Shown one piece after another: positions 58,452-58,607 of a stretch of DNA of 64,000 bases. Source of the stretch: Escherichia coli (lineage in GTDB: Bacteria; Pseudomonadota; Gammaproteobacteria; Enterobacterales; Enterobacteriaceae); the NCBI RefSeq assembly GCF_003334335.1, contig NZ_QOWQ01000024.1. One strand, given 5' to 3'. The notes below the pieces were generated by a model. That model ran no database searches, was not told the DNA's origin, and was given only the letters and a program-made list of their open reading frames with translations. Position numbers and translations under genes: made by a program. Positions within the stretch are counted from its first letter, which is position 1. The number at the start of each line of letters is the position of its first letter.

Positions 58452-58527
58452 TGGTGGGTCGTGCAGGATTCGAACCTGCGACCAATTGATTAAAAGTCAA
58501 CTGCTCTACCAACTGAGCTAACGACCC
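58452..58527 (-). tRNA. lysV: tRNA-Lys (anticodon UUU)
   Basis: Reverse complement GGGTCGTTAGCTCAGTTGGTAGAGCAGTTGACTTTTAATCAATTGGTCGCAGGTTCGAATCCTGCACGACCCACCA. Confidence 0.97.
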
Positions 58528-58531
58528 GAAG

Positions 58532-58607
58532 TGGTGGGTGATGACGGGATCGAACCGCCGACCCCCTCCTTGTAAGGGAGGTGCTCTCCCAGCTGAGCTA
58601 ATCACCC
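58532..58607 (-). tRNA. valY: tRNA-Val (anticodon UAC)
   Basis: Reverse complement GGGTGATTAGCTCAGCTGGGAGAGCACCTCCCTTACAAGGAGGGGGTCGGCGGTTCGATCCCGTCATCACCCACCA; only Val gene in this array. Confidence 0.95.

Follow-up and report, generated by a model that had tools for sequence, protein, structure and literature searches.

A single-valine allele of the valU tRNA operon in Escherichia coli and its probable origin by contraction of a tandem tRNA array

The 64-kb stretch of Escherichia coli DNA analyzed here (the window) carries an allele of the valU tRNA operon in which one tRNA-Val(UAC) gene is followed by one tRNA-Lys(UUU) gene. To judge from its sequence, the locus is the valUXY-lysV operon and not another one. 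It is very likely an orthologue of valU-valX-valY-lysV whose Val array has contracted from three genes to one by misalignment of its repeats.

ARAGORN detected four tRNA genes in the 64-kb window, two at this locus and two beyond gltX:

58452-58527, minus strand: tRNA-Lys(UUU), the lysV orthologue (ARAGORN; Rfam, 79.2 bits; exact match to K-12 lysV)
58532-58607, minus strand: single tRNA-Val(UAC) (ARAGORN; Rfam, 65.9 bits; identical to valU, valX and valY)
61307-61382, plus strand: tRNA-Ala(GGC) of the alaW/alaX type (ARAGORN)
61422-61497, plus strand: second tRNA-Ala(GGC) of the alaW/alaX type (ARAGORN)

The gathering score for tRNA matches in the Infernal/Rfam search is 29. An exact search found the 76-nt K-12 Val gene and lysV once each in the window. 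ARAGORN, Infernal/Rfam and this search thus agree with the original prediction, made from the letters of the window, that one Val and one Lys gene lie between gltX and xapR; the pair occupies exactly 58452-58607, as had been proposed. The 5′ end of the Val gene (58607) lies 258 nt from the gltX ATG (58866), the same distance as in MG1655. These 258 nt had been described as free of further tRNA genes, and a permissive Rfam/Infernal scan (E<=1) adds none, returning no further tRNA-like match or remnant in 58150-58900. ARAGORN and the exact search likewise give no additional Val gene in the window. Neither K-12 inter-Val spacer shares a single 15-mer with the 64-kb window, and hence neither has been moved elsewhere within it.

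The remaining parts of the operon and its flanks are as follows:

57303-58187, plus strand: xapR coding sequence, the boundary of the tRNA operon at its terminator end (collinear with MG1655 b2405)
58253-58313, minus strand: distal member of a pair of 61-nt direct repeats spaced at a 156-nt period (repeat search; also in MG1655)
58296-58421, minus strand: RtT-like repeat element downstream of lysV (Rfam RF00391)
58419-58449, minus strand: hairpin and U-run directly 3′ of lysV (RNA fold)
58528-58531, minus strand: Val-Lys spacer CTTC, 4 nt (comparison of array structures)
58625-58652, minus strand: predicted sigma-70 promoter of the valU operon, TTGACT-16 nt-TATAAT, followed by a G+C-rich stretch, GCGACTCC (promoter scan)
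58866-60281, plus strand: gltX, glutamate--tRNA ligase, divergent from the tRNA operon (100% identical to MG1655 b2400)

The window and MG1655 2515.6-2558.7 kb are collinear; the tRNA genes of the window lie between gltX and xapR, as in the valU operon. Identity to MG1655 is 100% over 58532-61038, gltX included, and xapR differs from b2405 by a single mismatch at window position 57495. The predicted promoter matches 11 of 12 consensus positions and is identical in sequence to that of MG1655, with its -10 hexamer 17 nt upstream of the tRNA 5′ end. The CTTC spacer is of the valY-lysV type; the lysT operon has CC or CTC instead. Directly 3′ of lysV, the hairpin (-19.1 kcal/mol, z = -6.4 against shuffled sequences) is also identical to MG1655 and is read as the putative intrinsic terminator of the operon; the consensus terminator scan passed over it, its stem running into A/U runs, and the hairpin was confirmed by folding. 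A Rho-independent terminator of the valU transcript has been described, which is removed by RNase P (PMC4176162). Assignment to the valU operon is based on position, the identical Val and Lys genes, the CTTC spacer, the promoter and the terminator hairpin.

Downstream of lysV, the two copies of the 61-nt repeat (58253-58313 and 58409-58469) are 98% identical. Each of them ends with the 3′-terminal ~17 nt of a Lys tRNA and a terminator hairpin; in the distal copy the hairpin is the second of the two and the Lys fragment reads TCCTGCACGACCCACCA. The RtT-like element is a marginal match to RF00391 (47.3 bits against a gathering score of 45), although it covers model positions 1-130 of 130, and RefSeq labels it 'RtT sRNA' in related genomes. 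The extra 156-nt RtT unit is missing from many E. coli genomes (88% coverage of the locus query). Similar modules made of Lys 3′ fragments fill the spacers of the lysT operon.

In MG1655 the locus reads valU-valX-valY-lysV (b2401-b2404), with three identical Val 76-mers and spacers of 44, 46 and 4 nt; the three Val genes that the original prediction gave for K-12 are correct. When the reverse complement of window 58180-58870 was aligned with MG1655, all aligned bases were identical and a single clean gap of 242 bp remained. This length equals 76+44+76+46, or two Val-plus-spacer units (120+122). The alignment that had been suggested as a check on the loss thus finds exactly two Val units missing between flanks that are both 100% identical. 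Position, promoter and leader, Val and Lys genes, CTTC, terminator and RtT-like repeat are shared with the MG1655 operon. The difference is confined to the Val array, where three Val genes with 44- and 46-nt spacers in the reference stand against one Val gene and no remnant of an inter-Val spacer in the window. No foreign DNA, target-site duplication or mobile-element end is present at the Val-gene junction, and the flanks match MG1655 up to the Val gene. The deletion junction would lie somewhere within the 76-nt Val gene at 58532-58607, at no single assignable point, since the parental Val copies are identical.

The gap could in principle have arisen in the opposite direction, with a single copy as the ancestral state and the three copies of K-12 produced by duplication. 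Duplication junctions do exist at this locus, so the array can grow. Duplicating one Val gene, however, cannot recreate two spacers that are not homologous to each other. The same two spacers are found in ~90% of 5,426 complete E. coli genomes, and the 44-nt spacer joined to Val (sp44+Val) in 5,262 of the 5,426 (~97%), across all lineages sampled, with 164 lacking it. Moreover, 25-kb haplotypes (39001-64000) that are 100.0% identical to the window span the query length plus 242 bp, that is, they carry three Val genes. They occur in several phylogroup-A genomes, among them Z1323PEC0012, NMBU-W12E19, BR1220, JNQH497/498 and MEI4BO-21. None of the 5,426 genomes gave a perfect match in one piece. 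Single-copy genomes amount to 0.5% and sit on scattered, unrelated flanks. An ancestral single copy is effectively refuted by these comparisons and deserves almost no credence. On the sequence evidence the single-copy state is derived, because a single-copy ancestor cannot regenerate two unrelated spacers, and recent, because identical 25-kb haplotypes carry three copies. The loss of two Val copies, which had been proposed from the K-12 arrangement, is borne out by the same haplotypes and by the spacers common to ~90% of genomes.

A second route to the same gap would be ectopic exchange or gene conversion with the other Val/Lys operon, lysT-valT-lysW-valZ-lysYZQ, replacing the array as a whole. 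Such exchange is known at the locus: STK78-E (NZ_CP162185.1) and 118UI (NZ_CP032515.1) carry lysT-operon spacers within the valU operon, and AS19-RrmA- has a CTC spacer of the valZ-lysY type. In the window, by contrast, the spacer is the valY-lysV-specific CTTC, no spacer of the lysT type is present, and both flanks of the gap agree with MG1655 at every base; no base specific to the lysT operon was found in 58452-58660. This origin is therefore highly improbable for the allele described here. In STK78-E and 118UI the Val array is replaced by a Val-Lys-[spacer]-Val-Lys arrangement. The spacers there are of the 135-nt lysT-valT type and the final 51 nt of the one between lysW and valZ, which points to ectopic recombination or gene conversion involving two Val/Lys operons that lie ~1.7 Mb apart. 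AS19-RrmA- has one Val(UAC) match in its whole genome.

The window belongs to a very close relative of K-12. Besides the 242-bp gap and the missing CPZ-55 prophage, it differs from MG1655 by six SNPs in about 37.5-43 kb. These lie at 24926, 28486, 29814, 34701, 56143 and 57495, and at each the window departs from MG1655 and from TG1 alike, so by its sequence it is not K-12 itself. Several smaller differences were noted along the way. The eutA gene directly precedes eutB (window ~19686-22462, junction ~21089-21101), and the cryptic prophage CPZ-55, which interrupts the eut operon of MG1655, is absent; the RefSeq record named 'TG1' also lacks CPZ-55 despite its MG1655-matching SNPs. At 63924-64000 an IS186-type terminal inverted repeat, CATAAGCGCTAACTTAAGGGTTG, follows right after the pdeA stop codon, as IS186C does in K-12. 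The element runs opposite to its orientation in MG1655 and TG1, an arrangement that the window has in common with seven non-K-12 phylogroup-A genomes. A small ORF on the plus strand at 57104-57262, between xapB and xapR, is annotated as 'DUF1427 family protein' (WP_000651752.1) in RefSeq relatives and is missing from the MG1655 feature table for this interval.

Copy number at the locus was surveyed by megablast, with queries specific to each junction, in 5,426 complete E. coli genomes. This comparison across strains, which had also been suggested as a check on the loss, returned single-copy junctions, one-unit deletions and duplications (sp44 and sp46 denote the 44- and 46-nt spacers):

leader-Val-lysV junction, single-copy type: 26 genomes
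leader-Val-sp46 junction, valU x valX deletion, BW25113/J53 type: 134 genomes
sp44-Val-lysV junction, valX x valY deletion: about 235 genomes, independently bracketed at 185-276
sp44-Val-sp44 junction, duplication: 70 genomes
sp46-Val-sp46 junction, duplication: 79 genomes

These counts include many clonal laboratory derivatives and some possibly collapsed assemblies, and they describe the database rather than rates of events. The first query for the sp44-Val-lysV junction had a background coverage of 79%, close to the 80% threshold. In a redesigned query, sp44+Val plus 3 chance bases reached 86% coverage, so that 5,262 genomes passed; an evenly spaced ranking of its matches gave the bracket of 185-276, which agrees with ~235. 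An 801-nt query spanning the locus (196 genomes at >=80% coverage) was rejected as a census of one- and two-copy arrays, as its pieces are joined unevenly and its flanks vary. RtT or xapR can be absent from the flanks, and the short junction queries were used instead.

Val matches per genome indicate that about 23 of the 26 junction-positive genomes are true single-copy arrays. That all 26 carry a single Val gene is refuted by 118UI and STK78-E with their Val-Lys-spacer-Val-Lys arrangement. Among the sampled positives, annotation and sequence confirm true Val+Lys arrays in TG1, HNSQ2209, Xuzhou21, HS13-1, PapRG-06-5, MS 200-1 and AS19-RrmA-. The flanks of the true singles fall into at least four structures, with either xapR or FlxA-like/yfeR and, in each case, RtT present or absent. 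TG1, a K-12 strain (NZ_CP196935.1), has the MG1655 base at all six SNPs where the window differs. Contraction of the Val array has, on this sequence evidence, arisen repeatedly, since single-copy arrays are found on differing flank haplotypes and separately in TG1. Single-copy genomes make up ~0.5% of the set and occur on unrelated flank haplotypes. Roughly 10% of the complete E. coli genomes have some number other than the canonical three, from one up to at least four; the annotation of IAI39 lists four Val genes and Lys. Laboratory strains vary as well, with three copies in MG1655, two in BW25113 and J53 and one in the TG1 record, and one DH5alpha record carries the sp46-Val-sp46 duplication junction.

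The repeats that make such changes possible could also mislead an assembler, and the genome may really hold two or three Val genes that an assembler or polisher collapsed to one. With a short unit of 120-122 bp, 76 bp of it identical, the array is open to collapse by short-read assemblers, and the resulting sequence would be the same as that of a real deletion. Some records in the census invite the same doubt. HNSQ2209 combines a single Val array with a single Ala gene, which may mean that some database singles are collapses; the Xuzhou21 assembly dates from around 2012 and is unlike other O157:H7 genomes; and several assemblies of commercial strains give broken, odd-length matches at the locus. 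Against a collapse in the window, the two spacers are unique sequence and both would have to be dropped cleanly, and the window retains other tandem repeats, namely the tRNA-Ala pair (61307-61497) and the 156-nt RtT repeat. Contractions are also real in well-verified strains: for BW25113 and J53, two copies are documented by dozens of independent assemblies as well as by publications. An assembly artefact is on balance rather unlikely.

In HNSQ2209 the one Ala gene lies at 46891-46966, and IS1 replaces xapAB; its single Ala gene is due to another contraction of a tandem tRNA array or to collapse during assembly. The commercial laboratory strains concerned (NZ_CP081007-9, NZ_CP083273-4, NZ_CP084529, NZ_CP084683 and NZ_CP081489) show two-piece, odd-length junction matches. 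In some cases no tRNA is annotated beneath the match, which suggests that the records are error-rich at tandem tRNA loci.

Short tandem direct repeats in E. coli undergo deletion and duplication through unequal sister-strand exchange or RecA-independent replication slippage, and slippage is efficient where the repeats are short and closely spaced. The preferred reading of the locus, contraction by repeat misalignment, follows this pattern. Identical direct repeats bound the deleted segment, whose length is a whole number of periods, and one-unit deletions and duplications are present at the valU locus in other genomes. Misalignment is favored because the endpoints lie in identical repeats, whole periods are lost, no scar is left and all the sister products exist in the population; endpoints in repeats, loss of whole periods and reciprocal duplications are likewise the marks of tandem-repeat deletion in E. 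coli. Misalignment of the first with the last of the three 76-bp direct repeats would remove two periods (242 bp), whether by unequal sister-chromatid or intrachromosomal recombination or by replication slippage. A single event (valU x valY) or two one-unit losses in succession (3 to 2 to 1) would account for the contraction, and the expected product is a scarless leader-Val-CTTC-Lys-terminator. Since the repeats are identical, the sequence is compatible with either number of steps and with either pathway. Recombination between identical tandem genes, which the original prediction had put forward as the simplest cause, is supported in this wider sense: RecA-dependent exchange and slippage fit the sequence equally well.

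Related alleles are already known. The BW25113/Keio/J53 allele lacking valX shares the locus and the scarless loss of a whole unit (PMC5053530), but one unit (120 bp) is lost there and the 46-nt spacer is retained, whereas two units (242 bp) are lost here. The absence of valX from BW25113, the parent of the Keio collection, goes back to a BW25113-MG1655 genome comparison cited in the same article (PMC5053530). The single-copy alleles of TG1, HS13-1, MS 200-1, PapRG-06-5 and Xuzhou21 have the same Val-CTTC-Lys structure as the window. Their backgrounds differ from it: TG1 has MG1655 bases at the six SNPs and its IS186 reversed, and HS13-1, MS 200-1, PapRG-06-5 and Xuzhou21 have left flanks unlike that of the window (FlxA-like/yfeR, or no RtT). 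With these differing backgrounds, the contractions count as separate events.

From one E. coli strain to another, the copy number of a tRNA gene commonly differs by one in either direction, and glyVXY is a tandem array with three or four copies (PMC4539685). The tRNA gene set of Pseudomonas fluorescens evolved by duplication (PMC7661048). In both cases, as in the valU array, tRNA dosage is altered by recombination between repeated copies. The P. fluorescens duplications span tens to hundreds of kb and were selected after tRNA deletion (PMC7661048), in contrast to the 242-bp contraction described here.

Transcription of the contracted operon is still expected to start at its own strong predicted promoter and to yield leader-Val-Lys-terminator, with lysV now 242 nt nearer the promoter. 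RNase P processes the valU transcript in 3′-to-5′ order (PMC4176162), and it should mature the shortened transcript in the same order. The locus would supply one rather than three of the normally five tRNA-Val(UAC) genes, and the genome total would fall from five to three if the lysT operon, which lies outside the window, is canonical. Published work suggests that the loss of two Val copies is tolerated and may be nearly neutral. The ten tRNA transcription units that are essential in MG1655(DE3) do not include valUXY-lysV (PMC11480407), and engineered loss of redundant tRNA genes has mostly weak effects in rich media (PMC9981150).

The contraction could be both genuine and selected, with lower tRNA-Val(UAC) dosage favored in slow-growth or nutrient-poor niches. 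In rich media, deleting redundant tRNA genes often leaves fitness unchanged or lowers it, but in poor media it can be an advantage (PMC9981150), and contraction junctions (~395 genomes) outnumber expansion junctions (~149). In an evolution experiment the valY/lysV region also stood out as a target of biased mutation, although not significantly after FDR correction (PMC10195153). However, many two-copy genomes are clonal laboratory derivatives that inflate these counts, and single-copy alleles are rare (0.5%) and sit at lineage tips, as expected for recurrent mutations that are weakly deleterious or neutral. Selection for the contraction is accordingly unlikely. A still more doubtful extension makes the valU array a fast-switching copy-number locus with modules imported from the lysT operon, whose contractions are selected in slow-growth niches, the one-copy allele here being an adaptive extreme rather than neutral mutational noise.

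The preferred reading, an ordinary repeat-mediated contraction of a known tandem tRNA array, places the window in a known operon with a known type of polymorphism, which can already be seen in annotated public genomes and, in its one-unit version, in the literature. The census, in which about one in ten genomes departs from three copies, is the only result that is even mildly notable. Collapsed tandem tRNA arrays look like real deletions, a point that matters for quality control of assemblies. If contraction were shown to be selected, the locus would offer a naturally occurring case of the cost that engineered deletions have revealed for redundant tRNA genes. The Val array of the valU operon is an unstable tandem repeat, and the gene counts of K-12 should not be assumed for other strains, which bears on the modeling of tRNA pools and codon usage and on the reading of tRNA-seq and Keio-collection data.
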